Shown: piece after piece, positions 7,846-55,298 of the stretch
Layout of the letters: each line of letters starts with the position of its first letter
Numbering within the stretch: position 1 is the stretch's first letter
From: Eledone cirrhosa
Lineage: Eukaryota
DNA length: 64,000 bases
Direction of reading: 5' to 3'
Assembly (NCBI GenBank): GCA_964016885.1
Contig: CAXHJY010000343.1
Span: forward strand, 303,019 to 367,018
Notes under the pieces: generated by a model
Databases searched by the model: none
What the model was told of the DNA's origin: nothing
What the model saw: only the letters and a program-made list of their open reading frames with translations
Made by a program: the position numbers and the translations under genes

Positions 7846-8133
7846 CCAGGGAGTGTAACACGGAGTTACTGTAGGTTCACCTGGGTGAGCACTCCATCTT
7901 TAGGTTCACGTCTGTAGTGAAGTGTAGAGCTAGACAGAGTGTAATAGAATAATACAAGGACAAAAGGTTAAACCTTCATTACTTTTATTGGTTGGTGACA
8001 CATGTTTCGTTATTGATCAGCTCAAGGTTTGATCTGTATTGATACAGATCAAACCTTGAGCTGATCAATAGTGAAACATGTGTCACCAACCAATAAATGT
8101 AATGAAGCAGTAACCATTCGTCCTTGTATTATT
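7846..8133. mobile_element. Penelope-like fold-back terminus; arms 7948-8039 / 8042-8133, long arm on minus strand running into a TA-rich tract
   Basis: ~92-bp inverted arms; each carries GAAACATGTGTCACC (3' half of a hammerhead) followed by AATAAA. Confidence 0.7.
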
Positions 8134-8159
8134 ATGTATGTATATATATTAACACAATT

Positions 8160-14824: not shown

Positions 14825-15519
14825 TGATACACAAAATATACATATAAATAATATGTATATAGTGTATGTGCTACATATACACAATATATACACTATATAT
14901 ATATATATAAATAATATGTATATAGTGTATGTGCTACATATACACTATATATATATATAATATGTATATAGTGTATGTGCTATATATACACAAAATATAC
15001 ACTATATATATACATATAAATACTATGTATATAGTGTATGTGCTACATATACACAATATATACACTATATATACATATATATATATAGATAGATAAATAT
15101 ACACGGGTGTGTATGATTGTGTATAGAAGATTATATTAATAAAAGGAATTCCAACTTTGTCTGATTTACTCGTTTTATTTACAATCCTTTAAAATGTTAT
15201 AATGGTATTAGAATGAAATAGTTTGGTAGAATATTAAATGTTAAGTGTTCATTGAACAAGTACTTTCATGCTTTCGCAATCTTCAGGTTCATATTGTGTG
15301 GTGACAGTCAAGTTTGTAATTTTCACAGTTGAAAATTGCAAACTTGGCCCGTCCAACCCATGCAAGCATGGAAACGTAGATATAATGATGATACACAAAA
15401 TATACACTATATATACACATATAAATATGTATATAGTGTACGTGCTACATATACACAATATATACACTATATATAAATACTGCATATATAGAGTATATGC
15501 TACATATAGACAATATATA

Positions 15520-34596: not shown

Positions 34597-37479
34597 ATTT
34601 CTAGCTAGAGATCTTTACATAAAGGATTCTCACCACTTCTACTGATACATTAAGAAATGTAGGTATCGTTAATAGATGCCATGTATTCTAATATACAAAG
34701 GGTCCATAAAAGACTGCAGAAGTCTGCTTTCTTCTTCTACAAGTTGTAATGTAGCATTTAATTGGTACAAGTAATAAGACATATGTCAGTGTAAGACTAA
34801 TCTTGGATGAATAAAAGGCAAGTGGCTATATATATATGTGTGTGTGTGTGTGTTTGATTATTGTGGAATATACCACTATTATTATTGTTAAAGTGAGAGA
34901 AGCTCTATTCACAATAACGTCCTCATCTCATAAAACAGACGAATAAGACTTCTATAGTTAAGGTTCTTGTTATTGGGGACAGTTCAGGTGACAAGAGAAT
35001 TAGTATCAATAATTTCAAAAGATCAAGGTTAATATATATACATATATATACAGACATACAGTGTGTAGGTATAAGAGAGAGTAATAGACGTATGTGTGTG
35101 TGTGTGTGTGTAGAAATATGTGTGTAGGTGTTGTAATAAATCAAGATATTTCACTTCAGATAGAAAAGTTCACAATGCTTGTGTTGTGGTGGAAAAGGAA
35201 ATAATACGTACTTTAGTTGTCAAGACCAAATATAAAGTCAAGAAAAGTTAGTAAAAACTAAATGTTCACTGATTTCTGATTAAAATAATATTTTCCTGTC
35301 CTGTAAAATGTTGAACAACCCCTTCAATATTTAATAATACAGGTGATAAAACAACAACTATAAGGTAAATAAGTCACCTTATGTTATTTACAAACATTAA
35401 CGTCCACCTTAATATGAAATAATCACCATAAAAGATAAAATTAGATGAGGTTTAAGTTGTAACAATGGAGCTGATATAAATGGTAATATTTCACCGTCTA
35501 GTTGACACCGGTGTCATGACTTAAAAGTCCCCCACACAATTTAATACATTCAGAAACAACTTCCGTTATATGAACTACCAGAAAACCACCCGAAGGTAGC
35601 GTGTGTAGTGTGTATATTGATATTATACGCAGGTATATATGATACATGTATATATACCTGCGTGTAATATCAATATACACACTACACATGCTACCTTCGG
35701 GTGGTTTTCAGCTAGCATGTGTAGTGTGTATATTGATATTATACGCAAGTATATATATATACATGTAGATATGATACATCAAATAAAATCATAATTGACA
35801 ATATATAATTGTTTCTACGTTAGGCACAAGGAAAGCAAATAACAGTGTATTACTGGTACTTTATTTTATCGACCCAGTAAGGATGAAAGGCAAAGTTAAC
35901 TTCGGCGGGATTTGAACTCAGAATGGCAAGGGCCGTAACTCTATGCGTCAAAGCATGGCGTCCGACCCTCTACCAATACTGCCAATCCACCGCCTTGACA
36001 ATATATAATACACAGAAATTGAACAAAAACTGTGTTACACTGTCTTATGTAATCAGTAACGTAATCCATGATACATTAAAAAGGACGATATTATATATAA
36101 ACTGCATTAGGAGAAAATTAGTGACAGAAAATTAATAGTTTATTGAAGTGATGGCCAACCGGAAGTGTTGACATTTCAGAAATTTTAAAGAAGTGAATCT
36201 TTAAATAAACAAAATATATTTAATCAACAGCCCCGAAATTTAGTAGATAAATTATGTAATATTCATTCATTATTTATTCAAAGTAATCTAACTTATTTTA
36301 CTAATGGGATAAACAATTATAAACTGTACGCAGTCCCATGCTCCTTCTTTTATTATAGTTTAGATTCATACGTTCAATAGATATGCTAGTACTTTATTCA
36401 GATTTGAATAAATAACGTTATTAATGTTATATAACTGTTCATATTAAACCAAAACACATTATTAAAGGTAATAAAATATTTACGTAATGGAAAAAAAAAG
36501 AAAAAACGAATCAAACAACGAAAATAATTGTTTCTACTTTTGGCACAAGGCGAGTAATTATCGCAGTGTATTACTGGTACTTTATTTTATCGACCTCGTA
36601 AGGATGAAAGGCAAAGTTAACCTCGGCGGGATTTGAACTCAGATCATAAAGGGAGGTAACTCTATGCTACAAAGCTTGGCGTCCGACGCTCTACCGATAC
36701 TGCCAATAAAATAACGGGAGAGGGACAGACTTTATATTTCAGTCTGAGCTGTGATTCAGCCCCACCCTACAGACAAAATGACGAAGGTGTTACCACAGAG
36801 AATAGCCAGAGACACCCACAGCAACATCCACCCCACCTCATGGGACTACTTCCTCAAGGGGGCTGCTGTCTTTCTAATTTTGAGAAGGAAATCAGCAGTG
36901 TAGGGACAAAGAGGAAGTGGTTTGTCAGGCCCCGGTATTTAACTATCTCCCTCTTCTCTCTATTGCAGGTAGTGAAGCCTGGGTTTGTGGCTTCAGGGAA
37001 AATGTAGGAGGCAGAGAATGATACAACCCATGCTAAACCTCCAACTAAAGCTGATACTTGTCTTTTTCAGCTGTGGAGATTAGAGACATGTGGAATGATG
37101 TGTCTTGCTTAAGGTCACAATGTACCTCCCTAACTGACAATAGAAAACATGATATTACCATATGTTGTATGACTTCACTATACAATATATATGTGTTTGT
37201 ATACATATATATAGTATATATTTGTGTATACATTGTCTCATTCCATGAGAGTAACTTGGTCAGTCTATGAACTTCTCATCCGACCCTTCTATATGTATAT
37301 ACATGTTTGTCAGCGTGTGTGTACATATGTATATAGAATATTGTCACAACTACTATATACACCACATATACACTATATATAATATTGTCCAATATATATA
37401 GACTATATGTCATGTTGTCCAAGGGAAAGGCTGATATAGATCAGCACCAGTGACATTACAACTATTATATACACTATAT

Positions 37480-42474: not shown

Positions 42475-43193
42475 TGTATGTATATATACACATATATATA
42501 TATGTGTGTGTGTGTACCCCTCATTCCGTTTTTAAAAATACACTCGTTGAACCACGTCATCCCCGTGGCAACACGTGGTTCAAATCATTCGCAGTTTTGC
42601 ATTTGCTGTGTAAACGCAGATGGTTATCTTCTTCTCCTTTGGTGAACATCCAAGTATTTAACTGCTGTGATTTACGGATTAATAGGTGAAATATATTTCT
42701 TACTTAAAGAAATATATACAAAGGAGATTAATCATTTTAAATGGTATCTATATTTGAAGTTCTAGTTAAACTTTAATTAGTTACCTACCTAGCTATGTGT
42801 GCCTACATTCTTTACAAATTATACCCTGTGATTGTTTCATGTATTTATTATATATATATATATGTCAATCTATTTCTAGTTGATATGTAATGCTCGGATC
42901 TAATCTTTGAGCTTATTCTACGGTGGATATGGCGCATGTCTCTCAGACATGACAACCCTTAATTTTAATTTTGGATATATATACATATATATATACATAT
43001 AACATATGTATATATACAAATATACATATAATATATATATATACATATATATATATGTATGAGGTTGGTGTTAGGAAGGGCATCCAGCTGTAGAAATCAA
43101 GCCAGAATCAGTTCCTGTCCTACCCCTGCAAACAGGGAATAACGGACGTAAAAGGATGATGATGATGATACATATATATATATATATATATAT

Positions 43194-43536
43194 AAAAAAA
43201 GATGAAATCAAAAATGCAACTGGAGTCTTATTTTTAAAAAAATATATATATTTATTTGGTTCCTTTACCGGTTTCGCAGTTCTTCCCGCTTTTCAAAATT
43301 AGAGTTGAGATAGAGGGTCTGTGGTTTTCCTCACAAGAGAAAAACCACAGACCCTCCATCTCAACTCTACTTTTGAAAAGCAGAAGAACTGCGAAACCGG
43401 TAAAGGAACCAAATAAATATATATATATTTTTTTAAATAAGACTCCAGTTGCATTTTCGATTTCATCTTTTTTTCTTTATACTTTCACTCGTGTAGGACA
43501 CCTCGGTTATTTTTCATTTTGTAAAAAAAACCTCAC

Positions 43537-43542
<6 letters not shown>
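43194..43542. mobile_element. Penelope-like fold-back element (arms 43194-43332 / 43337-43474, plus-strand tail to 43542) in (TA)n
   Basis: ~138-bp near-perfect inverted arms, each with a hammerhead-like motif and AATAAA. Confidence 0.8.
43370..43405 (+). ncRNA. Minimal type I hammerhead-like ribozyme, U3-A8 core variant (second copy on minus strand at 43262-43299)
   Basis: CTT-TTGAAAA-GCAG aagaa CTGC-GAAA-CCGG-TA-AAG: stem I, core, stem II, palindromic stem III, GUA site. Confidence 0.7.
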
Positions 43543-43573
<31 letters not shown>

Positions 43574-43577
<4 letters not shown>

Positions 43578-46460
43578 ACGGCTTCAATAGAGTACATGGA
43601 GGCCATGGAGTTGGCACAAGGAATGAGGAAGGATTCAGACTTCTAGAATTCTGCGACGCCAATGACATGTCGATATGTAACACAAACTTTAAAAAACCCG
43701 ACAACCACCTGATCACCTATAGATCAGGGGAGCACTCTAGTCAGTTAGATTTTATTCTCATCAGAGGACGTGACAGATGGACGGTCGTAAACACAAAAGC
43801 CTTCCCTAGTGAGGAATGTACATCCCAACATAGCTTAGTTGTCAGCGACCTCACGGTCAGAACTAGACGAGCCCTGAAACAGAGGCCAACCTGGAGAAGA
43901 AAGATCTGGAAGCTGAAAGTCCCCTCAACCAGTAACAGATTTAAAGATATTTTACTCAACGCCTACGACAGTAAAGAAGAACAGATAGAGACATTTAACG
44001 TAGAAGAGAACTGGGAGTTCCTAAAAAATAACTTACTAGAGGCGACGGATGAGGTTTGTGGCTGGAGTAAGACCTCAAGCAGGAGGAGAGTGACTTGGTG
44101 GTGGAACAATAAGGTAGATGAAGCAGTCAAGGCCAAGAGACAGGCATGGAAAGAATGGAAGAACGGGGGGAGCAGGGTACATTACATAGAGACCAAGAGG
44201 GAAGCTAGGCGACAAGTATACTTAGCTAGGAGGGAAGCAGAGGATAGAAAATTCAAGCATGTTTTACAACGTGAGGACCAGAAACAAGAGGTATTCAAGA
44301 TTGCGAGGCAGTGTGTCAGAGATAGTTGTGATGTCATTGGAGAGAAGTGTATCCGGAATGATAAAGGTGAGCTTGCCCTCACAAGTGCTGAGAAGAAAGA
44401 TGCATGGAAGAGTCATTATGATAGATTACTAAATGAGGAGAATGCATGGGAAGAAGAGACCCTACCCCACGTAGACCCTATAGAGGGACCAGCAGTACAA
44501 GTCAGCGGCAGCGTAGTAAGTAAGGCAATCAGAGATATGAAGATAGGGAAGGCAACCGGTCCATCGGGTATAGCTGCCGAGATGCTGAAGGCATCTGGGT
44601 CTGTAGGTCACACTATAACCACACGTATCGTTAACCAGGTAATACTAGAGGGGGCCATACCAAAAGATTGGTGCAGTAGCATCATTGTCAACTGCTACAA
44701 AGGTAAAGGTGATGCACTAGATAGAGGAAACTATAGAGGTATAAAGTTGATGGACCAGGTCATGAAAGTAACAGAAAGAGTTATAGCACAGCTGATTAGG
44801 GACCGGGTGAATATAGACGAGATGCAATTTGGGTTTGTTCCAGGGAAAGGCACCACTGATGCGCTCTTCCTTGTGAGGCAATTACAGGAAAAGTACCTAG
44901 CTAAAAGTAAGCCACTCTACTTGGCATTTGTCGACCTTGAGAAAGCCTTTGACAGAGTTCCACGTGCAGTAATCTGGTGGGCTCTTAGAAAACTAGGAGT
45001 AGATGAATGGCTTGTGAAAGCGGTACAAGCCATGTATAGGGGAGCAGTCAGCAAAGTTAGGATTGGCAATGAGTATAGCGAGGAATTTAGCGTACAGGTT
45101 GGGGTCCACCAGGGCTCTGTTCTTAGCCCTCTCCTGTTCATCATAGTCCTGCAGGCAATAACGGAGGAGTTTAAGACCGGATGCCCATGGGAACTCCTGT
45201 ATGCTGATGACCTCGCACTCATAGCTGAATCTATGGTAGAACTAGAGAATAAATTCCAAACCTGGAAGCAGGGACTAGAGAGAAAGGGCCTCAAAGTCAA
45301 CATGACAAAGACTAAGGTCCTTATAAGTAGACGAGAAAACAGAACCCAGATCCCCTCAGGGAAATGGCCTTGCTCAGTATGTAGGAAAGGTGTAGGTAGG
45401 AACTCCATCCTTTGCCCCAAATGCAAACAATGGGTACACAAGAGATGTAGCGGGATCTCAGGAAGCTTAATTAAGAATGTAGGATTCACATGCAGCAGCT
45501 GTGCTGAAACAGCAAGCAAACAGCCACAGGAAACAAGTACCACCAATCTCTGGGAGGGCCCTGTAGAAACAGTAGACAGCTTCTGCTACCTAGGTGACCG
45601 AATTAGCAACGGAGGTGGGTGCTCAGAAAGTACAATAACTAGGGTAAGAACGGGATGGAAGAAGTTTAGGGAACTACTACCACTGCTAGCTGCAAAAGGC
45701 TTCTCCCTCAGAATGAAAGGCAGACTGTATGATGCGTGTATCCGAACAGCGATGTTGCATGGTAGTGAGACCTGGGCGCTGAAGGTGGAAGACTTACGTA
45801 GATTAGAGAGAAACGAAGCCTGCATGCTCCGATGGATGTGTAACAGTAATATACGTGAACGACAAAGCATAAATGAATTGAGAGAGAGACTGAGCATAAG
45901 AGGAATCAAATGCTGCGTGCAGGAGAGGCGGTTACGCTGGTATGGACATGTGATGCGTATGAAGGATGACAGCTGCATAAAAAGGTGCAGAGCACTAGAA
46001 GTTGATGGAAACCGCGGAGTGGGGAGACCCAAGATGACTTGGGATGAGGTGATAAAAGCCGACCTTACCCAACTACACCTCTCAAAGTCAATGACACACG
46101 ACCGTGACTTCTGGCGTCACGCAGTAATACAGGGTACCCGACCTCCCATGGGTACATGCTGAAGTATATAAACAATATGCCCCCCCCCCCCCACCGCAAG
46201 GTGGTCGTGGAGGTGCCACGGCAAAAAAGCACCCAGCCCACACTGTAAAGTGGACGTGTAGGCGCCACGAAAAAGCACCCAGCACTCACTGTAAATGAGG
46301 TTGGTGTTAGGAAGGGCATCCAGCTGTAGAAATCAAGCCAGATCAGTTCCTGTATGAGCAAGGCATGGTCAGCCGACCAGACACTGCCCACAACAGGACA
46401 ACCCGTCTAACCCATGCTAGCGTGGAAGAACGGACGTAAAACGGTGATGATGATGATGAT
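43574..46460 (+). mobile_element. Young 5'-truncated RTE-clade LINE
   Basis: Starts directly after (TA)n inside the APE domain; uninterrupted ORF; 3'UTR and (GAT)n tail. Confidence 0.95.
43667..46162 (+). CDS. RTE ORF (C-terminal part of APE endonuclease, reverse transcriptase with embedded PHD-type finger), N-terminally truncated
   Basis: 831-aa ORF with [52 protein letters not shown] and RLRWYGHV; the frame is open back to ~43576. Confidence 0.93.
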   Translation: MSICNTNFKKPDNHLITYRSGEHSSQLDFILIRGRDRWTVVNTKAFPSEECTSQHSLVVSDLTVRTRRALKQRPTWRRKIWKLKVPSTSNRFKDILLNAYDSKEEQIETFNVEENWEFLKNNLLEATDEVCGWSKTSSRRRVTWWWNNKVDEAVKAKRQAWKEWKNGGSRVHYIETKREARRQVYLARREAEDRKFKHVLQREDQKQEVFKIARQCVRDSCDVIGEKCIRNDKGELALTSAEKKDAWKSHYDRLLNEENAWEEETLPHVDPIEGPAVQVSGSVVSKAIRDMKIGKATGPSGIAAEMLKASGSVGHTITTRIVNQVILEGAIPKDWCSSIIVNCYKGKGDALDRGNYRGIKLMDQVMKVTERVIAQLIRDRVNIDEMQFGFVPGKGTTDALFLVRQLQEKYLAKSKPLYLAFVDLEKAFDRVPRAVIWWALRKLGVDEWLVKAVQAMYRGAVSKVRIGNEYSEEFSVQVGVHQGSVLSPLLFIIVLQAITEEFKTGCPWELLYADDLALIAESMVELENKFQTWKQGLERKGLKVNMTKTKVLISRRENRTQIPSGKWPCSVCRKGVGRNSILCPKCKQWVHKRCSGISGSLIKNVGFTCSSCAETASKQPQETSTTNLWEGPVETVDSFCYLGDRISNGGGCSESTITRVRTGWKKFRELLPLLAAKGFSLRMKGRLYDACIRTAMLHGSETWALKVEDLRRLERNEACMLRWMCNSNIRERQSINELRERLSIRGIKCCVQERRLRWYGHVMRMKDDSCIKRCRALEVDGNRGVGRPKMTWDEVIKADLTQLHLSKSMTHDRDFWRHAVIQGTRPPMGTC

Positions 46461-46730
46461 GTAGGAGGTGAGTTTTATTGTAGTACAATAAAGCAATGCA
46501 GATATCGGATAAGAAGCACTCTACAGTTTGTAGGACTGGAGTATACATAATATATAAGATATGTTGATTTAAAACTGCACTATCCACAAGTGTTTTTTAA
46601 CCTTCATATCATGTCTTCCTATTTTATCTTATGAAAACACAAATATTATTGCATGATGATGTTTGTTTTTGAAATGCACATAATAAAATACATGGAACTC
46701 TTTTAACCATCTTTTGATCTTATATATTAT
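46461..46730. mobile_element. Penelope-like terminus family Y, copy 1 (hammerhead core mutated to CTTATGA)
   Basis: Same sequence as 48983-49390 and 54842-55302 with most of the left arm deleted. Confidence 0.75.
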
Positions 46731-46740
46731 ATATATATAT

Positions 46741-47079
46741 AGTTAAAAGAATAGAGGTGTAACACACAAGTTATTATATATTGGTAAACGGAATAGAAAA
46801 TGGTGACAAATTGTTCACAGTTGAAAAATGGTTTAATTAGGAATAAAAGAGTATTAGTGATTGTATGGGTTAGTATTCAGTTGTGGTTTTAAGTTTTTAA
46901 GTTTTTACCGGTTGCGCATTTCTAAATGCTTTTCAAAAATAATTTTGAGATAGAGTGTCCGTGTTGATCAGAGCAAACAACACGGACACTCTATCTCAAA
47001 ATTATTTTTGAAAAGCATTTAGGAATGCGCAACCGGTAAAAACTTAAAAACTTAAAACCACAACTGAATACTAACCCAT

Positions 47080-47084
<5 letters not shown>
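46741..47084. mobile_element. Penelope-like fold-back element (arms 46860-46966 / 46978-47084, minus-strand tail to 46741) in (TA)n
   Basis: ~107-bp arms with one visible mismatch; core region homologous to the 43194 element. Confidence 0.8.
47005..47042 (+). ncRNA. Hammerhead-like motif, U3-A8 plus A13C variant (minus-strand copy at 46902-46939)
   Basis: TTT-TTGAAAA-GCATT tagg AATGC-GCAA-CCGG-TA-AAA. Confidence 0.55.
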
Positions 47085-47136
<52 letters not shown>

Positions 47137-47798
47137 TCTCATGCATACACACAGATACTCACATTCACATATATATATTTATATAGTAAAGCACTTTACT
47201 ATTAGGATTATATATATCTATATATGTTGCCTTGGCTGCTATTTCTAGGGCTAAAATTAACACCGGAAGTGGACAAGATGAAAAAAGTTAGCTAAAATTC
47301 AGTCTCAACTTTTTAAATGATAGATTTTTTTATGTCAACAAACGGAGAATATTTGGCAAGAAAGATAACTCTTGTCTTACTTAAAGCCGGAAATTGAGTT
47401 AAAAATTTTGCGGGTCTGCAGTTTATGTAAACCTTCTTATTTGGTCTTGTTAACTGGCATTTGACTGCTGTTTCTAGCATATATTAATAGACACTTTAGA
47501 AATAGCAGCCAAAAGTCAGCTAACAACACTATAGGAAACACCAGAAAGAAGAACTCATGCACACACACACATATATATATATATGTACATGAGTGTGTGT
47601 GTGTGTATATATATATACATGTACACACACACAGACATCTGTGTGTGTGTTTATATATATATATATACACACACACGCACAAATATATTAATATATGTGC
47701 GTATATATATATATAATATATGCATGTGTGTATATATGTGTATGTGTACGTATTCATACATACATATATATGTGTATATATATATATATATATGCATA

Positions 47799-47845
<47 letters not shown>

Positions 47846-47871
47846 GTATATACATATACATATATATATGT

Positions 47872-47904
<33 letters not shown>

Positions 47905-48019
47905 CAGTATATGTGTGTATATGATATATATGTATATGTATATATATATACAGTATATGTATATCTATGTGTATGTGTGTGTGAATATTTATATACAACC
48001 CCCTCCCCCCACACACATA

Positions 48020-48069
<50 letters not shown>

Positions 48070-48777
48070 TATATGTATATATATATACTTTATATATATA
48101 CATATATATGTATATATATATATATATATACACATATATATGTATGTATGAATACGTACACATACACATATATACACACACATGCATACATACATATATT
48201 ATATATATATACTCACATATATTAATATATTTGTGCGTGTGTGTGTATATATATATATATAAACGCACACACAGATGTCTGTGTGTGTGTACATGTATAT
48301 ATATATACACACACACACACTCATGTACATATATATATATATGTGTGTGTGTGTACATGGGTCCTTCTTTCTGGTGTTTCCTATAGTGTTGTTAGTTGAC
48401 TTTTGGCTGCTATTTCTAAAGTGTCTATTAATATATGCTAGAAACAGCAGTCAAATGCCAGTTAACAGACCAAATAAGAAGGTTTATATAAACTGCAGAC
48501 CCGCAACATTTGTAACTCAATTTCCGGCTTTAAGTAAGACAAGAGTTATCTTTCTTGCCAAATATTCTCCGTTTCTTGACATAAAAAAATCTATTGTTTA
48601 AAAAGTTGAGACTGAATTTTAGCTAACTTTTTCATCTTGTCCACTTCAGGTTTTAATTTTAGCGCTAGAAATAGCAGCCAAGGCAACATATATAGATATA
48701 TATATAATCCTAATAGTAAAGTGCTTCACTATATAAATATATATATATGAATGTGTGTATACGTGTGTATGCATGAG

Positions 48778-48860
<83 letters not shown>
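47085..48860. repeat. ~0.8-kb-arm inverted duplication; third direct copy of the unique core at 51100-51570
   Basis: 47120-47780 is the reverse complement of ~48125-48795, including complex microsatellite patterns. Confidence 0.9.
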
Positions 48861-48983: not shown

Positions 48984-49389
48984 GTAGGAGGTGAGTTTTA
49001 TTGTAGTACAATAAAGCAATGCAGATATTGGATAATAAGCACTCTACAGTTTGTAGGACTGGAGTATACATAATATATAAGATCAAAAGATGGTTAAAGG
49101 AGTTCCATGTATTTTATTATGCGCATTTCAAAGACAAACATCCTCATGCAATAATATTTGTGTTTTCATCATATAAAACAGGAGAATATGTTGTGTTTTC
49201 ATCAGATAAAACAGGAGGATATGTTGATTTAAAACTGCACTATCCACAAGTGTTTTTTAGCCTTCATATCATGTTCTCCTGTTTTATCTGATGAAAACAC
49301 AAATATTATTGCATGATGATGTTTGTTTTTGAAATGCGCATAATAAAATACATGGAACTCCTTTAACCATCTTTTGATCTTATATATTA

Positions 49390-49815: not shown

Positions 49816-49988
49816 GCTATATGCTTTGGACTATATTTGTAATATGGTACAAAATGTTATACACCTCCTTAGTGATTTTTATTATATATTTTTACCCATA
49901 ATCTTGCAATACTTTAGTGTATGTACACTCCATATTCTTCGTATTTTTCGGCTTGTATTGGCCGATAGTGCTTCTTGTAGTTTTAATT

Positions 49989-50026
49989 GCCCTGATGAGT
50001 CCTTAATAGGACGAAACATTGTTGGC
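49989..50026 (+). ncRNA. Minimal type I hammerhead ribozyme within a 49816-50177 insert in (TA)n
   Basis: GCC-CTGATGA-GTCCT taat AGGAC-GAAA-CATTG-TT-GGC, then AATAAA at 50028. Confidence 0.85.
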
Positions 50027-50173
50027 TAATAAAGACTTTTGATGTATTGAAGGCTTCTTTGTTTTATTTTCATAATTCTTCGGCTCTGTTTAATTACATT
50101 GAGCTATACCTTTTACTGTCATTTCTATAATACGAAGAGGGTGTTTAAATCCAACACGCTCCAGTATTTTAAT

Positions 50174-50232
<59 letters not shown>

Positions 50233-50235
<3 letters not shown>

Positions 50236-50493
50236 GTTTGAATATGTGTAATAAGGCCAAGACAATGCAGGTATGGACATAGAAAAAAGAATGCAATAGT
50301 GAAAGATATTGATGTGAATTCGTCTTTCACCTTGAATTTAAATAAATTCAAGGTGAAAGACGAATTCACATCAATATCTTTCACTATTGCATTCTTTTTT
50401 CTATGTCCATACCTGCATTGTCTTGGCCTTATTACACATATTCAAACGTTTATACCTCATTACACAATGCTTCAAGTGAACTATAACCTCCTC

Positions 50494-54844: not shown

Positions 54845-55298
54845 GGAGGTGAGTTTTATTGTAGTACAATAAAGCAATGCAGATATCGGATAAGAAGCAC
54901 TCTACAGTTTGTAGGACTGGAGTATACATAATATATAAGAACAAAAGATGGTTAAAAGAGTTCCATGTATATTATTATGCGCATTTCAAAAACAAATATC
55001 ACCATGCAATAATATTTGTGTTTTCATCAGATAAAACAGGAGGACATGATATGAAGGTTAAAAAACACTTGTGGATAGTTCAGTTTTAATTCAGCATATC
55101 ATGTTTTAAATCAACATATCATGTTTTAAATCAACATATCATGTTGATTTAAAACTGCACTATCCACAAGTGTTTTTTAACCTTCATATCATGTCCTCCT
55201 GTTTTATCTGATGAAAACACAAATATTATTGCATGATGATATTTGTTTTTGAAATGCACATAATAAAATACATGGAACTCTTTTAACCATCTTTTGTT

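Follow-up and report, generated by a model that had tools for sequence, protein, structure and literature searches.

Can a hammerhead ribozyme whose core departs from the consensus still cut itself in living cells? Two palindromes in a 64,000-nucleotide stretch of the Eledone cirrhosa genome (NCBI GenBank assembly GCA_964016885.1, contig CAXHJY010000343.1, positions 303,019 to 367,018 of the forward strand; hereafter the window) raise this question. Each fold-back carries a minimal type I hammerhead motif in which core positions 3 and 8 are U and A (U3-A8); in the second, position 13 is C (C13). We call the fold-backs, and the families they come from, E1 and E2. We found that both palindromes are 5'-truncated, inverted copies of the pseudo-long terminal repeats (pLTRs) of two sister Neptune-like Penelope families. 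We think it probable that they are truncated, folded-back terminal repeats whose hammerhead cleaves itself inefficiently in cells, most plausibly as a protein-assisted dimer.

Both motifs lie in the pLTRs of full-length Penelope-like elements with reverse transcriptase (RT) and GIY-YIG endonuclease, which bears out the assignment to a retroelement lineage made in a first-pass annotation of the window. Widely spaced motif pairs flank coding sequence. A full-length E2 copy (L088) has two direct pLTRs 4.8 kb apart that enclose a 455-amino-acid open reading frame (ORF), RT and GIY-YIG (Pfam RVT_1, E=9.8e-7, just under its cut-off; GIY-YIG, E=8.8e-8). The single RT-endonuclease frame is 775 amino acids in E1, as in the full-length copy L107, and 784 amino acids in E2. 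The E2 frame was listed for 35 of 92 scored matches, 2 of those 35 with a stop, and all 92 were 98-100% identical; the E1 frame was listed for 47 of 61 scored matches, 12 of those with stops. Together the two families contain dozens of intact copies. Inverted pLTR pairs were found in L084, L087, L089 and L092-L094, and contigs aligned to the element were ~100-fold deeper at the pLTR end than in the ORF. That is, the families have the pLTRs, the tandem and inverted 5'-truncated copies and the 3' tail from two RT starts that characterize Penelope-like elements.

Translations of both families contain a CX4CxxC linker and a CCHH endonuclease. The families appear to be Neptune-type, by match to the features described for that clade (Craig et al. 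2021, PMC8557442) and not to named reference Neptune sequences. Shared features are RT, the linker, a C-terminal GIY-YIG with CCHH, the DKG motif, tails, inverted 5'-truncated copies and (TA)n targets. Membership of the Naiad clade is excluded by the C-terminal endonuclease (N-terminal in Naiad) and of the Hydra clade by the presence of CCHH, which Hydra lacks. Unlike the Neptune elements described, ours have a separate upstream ORF that overlaps ORF2 at T6A; the Fig. 1 legend of that paper has an optional frameshifted ORF1. The overlap is in the -1 frame at a conserved T6AG (L088 3904-3973, minus strand; L107 2755-2845), and the same site is near the start of ORF2 in 4 of 20 external loci checked (L146, L147, L150, L153). 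It is likely that this overlap is a -1 ribosomal frameshift. It could also be a 3' splice site, and we saw no strong hairpin 3' of T6AG.

The RT-endonucleases of E1 and E2 are 56% identical (431/774), and 92 of 134 four-fold sites differ between them. Since the motif block is nevertheless identical at 30 of 35 columns, with similarity stopping at the cut site, the pattern of conservation indicates selection on the motif.

The variant core is the master state of these families and not a product of decay. A genome-wide descriptor search, of the kind proposed in the first-pass annotation, found the variant core to be abundant: a pattern spanning both motifs had 25,845 exact matches in the 3.0 Gb genome and its reversed-pattern control had 0, and a relaxed descriptor had 0 matches in each of three shuffles of 694 kb of loci. 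The motifs are therefore not due to chance. By comparison, the canonical core with the same helix III had 2 matches in the genome (control, 146), so the idea that these are decayed copies of families with a CUGANGA consensus, which that annotation had held open, does not stand. C13 was present in 11,374 of the 25,845 matches. In 124 copies with the E2 backbone, position 13 holds another base, variously A, G or T, the pattern that post-insertion mutation would produce.

Both motifs have the 3-8 Watson-Crick pair, the G10.1-C11.1 pair, the NUH triplet and the palindromic helix III of minimal hammerheads. E1 also has G12, A13, A14 and A15.1, whereas E2, by virtue of C13, is a derived variant outside the consensus hammerhead. 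Rfam returned 254 matches; none of the 150 listed was to a hammerhead family, these being hairpin miRNA models and three-prime noise. There were no head-to-tail arrays of short non-coding units; the copies lie scattered, as solo or inverted arms that belong to coding elements, which rules out non-LTR (long terminal repeat) retrozymes. A pattern scan of viral contigs gave 84 single matches, which we did not use as evidence.

Evidence that the motifs cut came from chimeras with U6 snRNA. Listing U6 3' ends regardless of partner gave 93 genome matches, 19 of them within a U6 gene cluster. Five ran into E1 or E2, and all five did so at the first base after GUA. Ordinary E2 arms end at the cut in at most ~1% of cases (at most 69 of at least 6,246), and given this frequency the chance of five of five junctions at the cut is <1e-9. 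Partner assignment was by eye and, at 48 fetched loci, also by BLAST against the set of loci analyzed (assignments among the output listed); in a looser U6 search, the best 100 of 190 matches were seen. Targeted searches gave four U6 events for E1, all at the exact cut, and three for E2, two of them exact and one compatible, with two changed letters. That is, six of seven chimeras were exactly at the predicted cut.

Searching from the other side, we found 83 E2 arms that diverge at the cut. Among the first 30, 14 keep the core (repeat expansions), 16 are without it, and 2 begin with a U6 3' end (both below the gathering score of the Rfam U6 model, with E=2.5e-8 and 2.5e-4). No U6 was found in 20 further loci picked from the remaining 53. 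Two chimeras are themselves fold-backs and most terminate at the usual 3' ends of the family in (TA)n, which argues that they were copied by the element's own RT. The same genome has a canonical-core family with U6 joined right after GUA (L513, L503 and, weakly, L509), and a family with GAAA, a paired helix III and GUC (core not seen) with U6 joined after GUC (L501, L502, L527). Many other U6 partners were SINE- or LINE-like (short or long interspersed elements) or unassigned. By eye, no U6 joined at the putative transcription start was seen in the lists of U6 3' ends; such joins were not counted genome-wide.

RtcB joins the cyclic phosphate of U6 to RNA with a 5'-OH, the end left by a hammerhead (PMC6789731), and ligates hammerhead products (PMC7229834). 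The fusions would be best explained by RtcB ligating U6 to the 5'-OH cleavage product. They give position-exact, if indirect, support for self-cleavage after NUH, and suggest that both variants likely cut in living cells, including E2 with its altered core base.

Template switching to U6 is an older model for U6 chimeras. It is conceivable that a protein makes the cut or the junction with no catalysis by RNA, either as a structure-recognizing nuclease or as RT that stalls at the dimer helix and jumps to U6. The several non-U6 junctions near the site (the 16 of 30 inspected that are without the core) would fit such a model. However, the junction is at the exact scissile position in E1, in E2 and in the canonical-core family, which has different stems, and stalling would cause ordinary copies to pile up at the cut, where there were none in 93 arms (0/45 for E2, 0/48 for E1, and 0/26 for anchor-picked E1 arms). 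We regard the protein model as distinctly improbable. The count takes in both arms of fold-backs, and it is biased for the 22 E1 arms that had been selected by way of the motif.

Several other junctions were seen in these searches. In L461, L467, L468, L487, L488 and L489, E2 sense ORF sequence is joined directly at or near the cut site; these joins, for which there is no positional control, could be RNA fragments ligated to the 5'-OH product or template jumps. Recurrent U6 junctions into TA-flanked families (L507, L516, L505, L520, L521) are candidates for further hammerhead cut sites. One SINE-like repeat is the partner of about 20 U6 3' ends, with junctions that fall within a few bases of each other (e.g., L539). 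The tandem U6 gene cluster is at G000:C19:31778865-31840381, with a spacing of ~1.8-2 kb.

Where do the ordinary copies begin and end? Counted upstream from the core, the 5' ends cluster at 41-45 nt for E2 (16 of 45 arms) and at 38-45 nt for E1 (22 of 48 arms, and 14 of the 26 that were picked by anchor). A TATA-like box common to both families is ~30 nt before the cluster, which would put a putative transcription start ~43 nt upstream of the core, in a pLTR promoter. The 3' ends fall at two sites, which are 36 nt apart in E2; the E1 arms differ by ~70 nt, above the usual 30-40. A tail of this kind has been traced to internal initiation by RT in the Poseidon element PAc of Anolis (Frangieh et al. 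2024, PMC11167929), in which there are likewise two internal RT starts and AT-rich targets, the hammerhead acts with help from protein and the template is mainly uncut RNA. Unlike E1 and E2, PAc is C3-G8 and its hammerhead overlaps the start of an ORF, and a search for RNA ends at its cut site found none. Most likely, the short copies here were made from the 5' portion of transcripts that had not been cut, and were folded back during insertion. That is, most copies come from uncut RNA.

Based on these results we infer the following life cycle. The pLTR promoter would start transcription ~43 nt upstream of the core. RT would start internally at one of the two sites downstream of the motif and would copy mostly uncut RNA back to the start; the short copies that result would often fold back. 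Of the RNAs, a minority would dimerize through the 6-nt palindromic helix III and be cut after GUA. Occasionally the 5'-OH product would be ligated to U6 by RtcB and the chimera retrotransposed into (TA)n.

With copies made mostly from uncut RNA, the motif might instead be a catalytically dead relic, kept as a promoter-proximal, dimerization or protein-binding element. Naiad elements thrive without canonical hammerheads (PMC8557442), and there is partial conservation between the putative start site and the core as well. The six exact U6 junctions would be left unexplained, however, and we give a dead relic very little credence.

How would a self-cleaving dimer form? The first-pass annotation had noted the motif on both arms of a palindrome and had mentioned a dimeric mode of action for such hammerheads. 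The arms themselves are not the dimer: the two are mutually antisense, and in a folded transcript through the palindrome 97-100% of the core is paired, which masks it and rules out the arms as dimer partners. Because the core pairs with its own complement in such a transcript, the partners would be two sense copies. Cofolding predicted a minimum-energy dimer with helix II and an intermolecular helix III.

We looked for the motif in relatives. A protein search with the element gave 500 matches, the best 66-74% identical. (The contigs with loci L221-L268 are catalogued as bacterial genome bins but contain eukaryotic Penelope-like elements; contamination is the evident cause.) A descriptor match, always on the sense strand, was found in 24 of 123 related loci of other organisms; 7 of the 24 were U3-A8 and none was altered at position 13. 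A covariance model was built from the 18 distinct external motifs, excluding E1 and E2; their covariation score of 0.81 is circular, because the descriptor itself had selected them. The model detected the same helix III together with canonical cores in relatives L147, L157 and L155. A quick tree of 26 rows made E1 and E2 sisters (support 100) and had U3-A8 at several separate places. U3-A8 is therefore a recurrent compensatory switch, and C13 is derived in E2.

Several results weigh against self-cleavage, above all that of E2. Cleavage is read from genomic junctions. A13 is part of the strict core by which candidates are rejected (PMC3088659) and was kept in all 18 external motifs. In a pairwise scan of a type III hammerhead, activity was rescued by the G3-C8 swap only (PMC9901934). 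The covariance-model check suggested in the first-pass annotation gave E1 E=0.0033 in L107 and 0.12 in the window, but E2 no better than 1.6-1.8 (1.6 in the window). The 3-bp helix I was missing from the predicted dimers, and the hammerhead fold was 3.4 (E1) and 5.1 (E2) kcal/mol above them. The E2 subfamilies, which differ at only 7-9% of four-fold sites, did not show constraint since the change to C13. The E2 sample is three chimeras, and the run of A's after the cut varies between E2 subfamilies, giving an uncertainty of one base; one chimera of a canonical-core family (L522) is one base off.

Finally, E2 could be cut by the E1 core in a heterodimer. E1 would then be the working ribozyme and the C13 core of E2 dead, with E2 RNA cut in trans: in a double hammerhead one RNA gives the core and the other the GUA strand, and the palindromic helix III is common to E1 and E2. 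The predicted heterodimer (-18.2 kcal/mol) folds as readily as the homodimers (-19.1 and -17.3), and the invariance of A13 in all relatives examined would also fit. In contrast, an E1 core on an E2 substrate would have a helix I of 2 bp only, the whole core and helix II are kept in ~11,000 E2 copies, and chimeras per copy are similar (3 per 11,374 for E2, 4 per ~14,500 for E1). We consider cutting in trans unlikely and continue to prefer self-cleavage by both families.

How much of this is new? The first-pass annotation had proposed a lineage with a variant core. The family state is indeed U3-A8, but this pair recurs among relatives and U3-A8 in Penelope minimal hammerheads, including a UUGAAAA core, had already been published (Cervera and de la Pena 2014, PMC4209133). 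The metazoan motifs in that paper, among them the U3-A8 motif of Cercyon from Schistosoma mansoni, share with ours the position in the pLTR, the 3-bp helix I, G10.1-C11.1, the palindromic helix III and the U3-A8 core, and that paper also describes inverted pairs 100-700 bp apart. They differ in having a bulged base before helix II, absent from E1 and E2, and every row of the supplement alignment is GAAA (one AGAAA), unlike E2. Genomic evidence of cutting in vivo, as presented here, is absent from that paper. U6/LINE-1 chimeras (Moldovan et al. 2019, PMC6789731) likewise have a U6 3' end with a U tail joined to a retroelement fragment and retrotransposed; their L1 partners are variably truncated, whereas the partner here starts at one fixed, ribozyme-defined base. 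A literature search pairing hammerhead with A13C matched no paper, and one on octopus Penelope/Neptune genomes gave nothing beyond PMC8557442. Thus, the U3-A8 part is ordinary. The fixation of C13 in a family that is young and successful is not, and neither are the position-exact U6 chimeras, as fossil evidence of cleavage, although we do not claim U6-Penelope chimeras as such to be unpublished.

Whether Penelope hammerheads cut in cells has been open so far: activity in vitro is weak, RNA ends at the site were sought in Anolis and not found, and some clades lack hammerheads. U6 fusions at the exact scissile base would be a fossil trap for 5'-OH ends, readable from assemblies alone. On balance we lean, if only slightly, towards a broader claim: that a natural hammerhead with U3-A8 and C13 self-cleaves in vivo in an active retrotransposon, and that U6-Penelope chimeras are a genome-readable record of such cleavage, one that can score the in vivo activity of any hammerhead variant in any animal genome. 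Self-cleavage by the C13 family, if true, would mean that a position regarded as invariant in the hammerhead core can change without loss of function, and that ~26,000 motifs of this one genome escape standard descriptors.

Table 1. Features of the window (positions count from its first nucleotide).
Feature	Position	Strand	Description
E1 fold-back	43194..43542	.	Inverted pair of 5'-truncated pLTR ends, Penelope-like family 1; flanked by (TA)n
E1 mirror motif copy	43263..43299	-	Position 3 at 43296; private changes in helices I and II
E1 minimal type I hammerhead motif	43370..43405	+	U3-A8 core, A13, palindromic helix III; helix I 43370-43372, core starting 43373, predicted cut 3' of 43402, last base 43405
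LINE	43575-46461		5'-truncated; Pfam RVT_1 E=6.8e-32
E2 fold-back	46742..47084	.	Inverted pair of pLTR ends, Penelope-like family 2; flanked by (TA)n
E2 mirror motif copy	46903..46939	-	U3-A8, C13; position 3 at 46936
E2 right-arm 5' end	46966..46978	+	Recurrent 5' boundary of the family; putative transcription start
E2 minimal type I hammerhead motif	47005..47041	+	U3-A8 core, C13; helix I 47005-47007, core starting 47008, predicted cut 3' of 47038, last base 47041
Hammerhead-like motifs of other repeat families	49984-50031, 15250-15294, 49280-49350, 54968-55038, 55200-55270		Canonical core; some within palindromes
Other long fold-back palindromes	7945-8136, 35571-35719, 50211-50472, 47083-48832		Adjoining TA repeats

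In the window, the two motifs are as the first-pass annotation had described them, except that the E2 motif ends one base earlier than its 47042. Mirror copies on the minus strand confirm that each palindrome has the motif on both arms, with C13 on both arms of E2; the left copy of E1 is degenerate, with a helix I of 2 bp and one G-U pair, and does not satisfy the descriptor. The stems of E1 and E2 differ and still pair, as had been claimed; the covariation, taken alone, is thin, with a single double change in each of helices I and II. Both elements are bigger than had been flagged and asymmetric. E1 has a short left arm and a long, tailed right arm, and E2 a long left arm and a right arm that is shortened in the window copy.

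The LINE between E1 and E2 is unrelated to them and has an 861-amino-acid open frame with RT and a PHD-like finger, and a (GAT)n tail. The neighborhood of E1 and E2 (window 43060-47084; L002-L009) is duplicated at about nine genomic places that share flanks. Paralogous loci without the LINE hold E1 and E2 ~780 bp apart, so the proximity of the two is no evidence of function. The other long palindromes in the window are possibly from other Penelope-like families.

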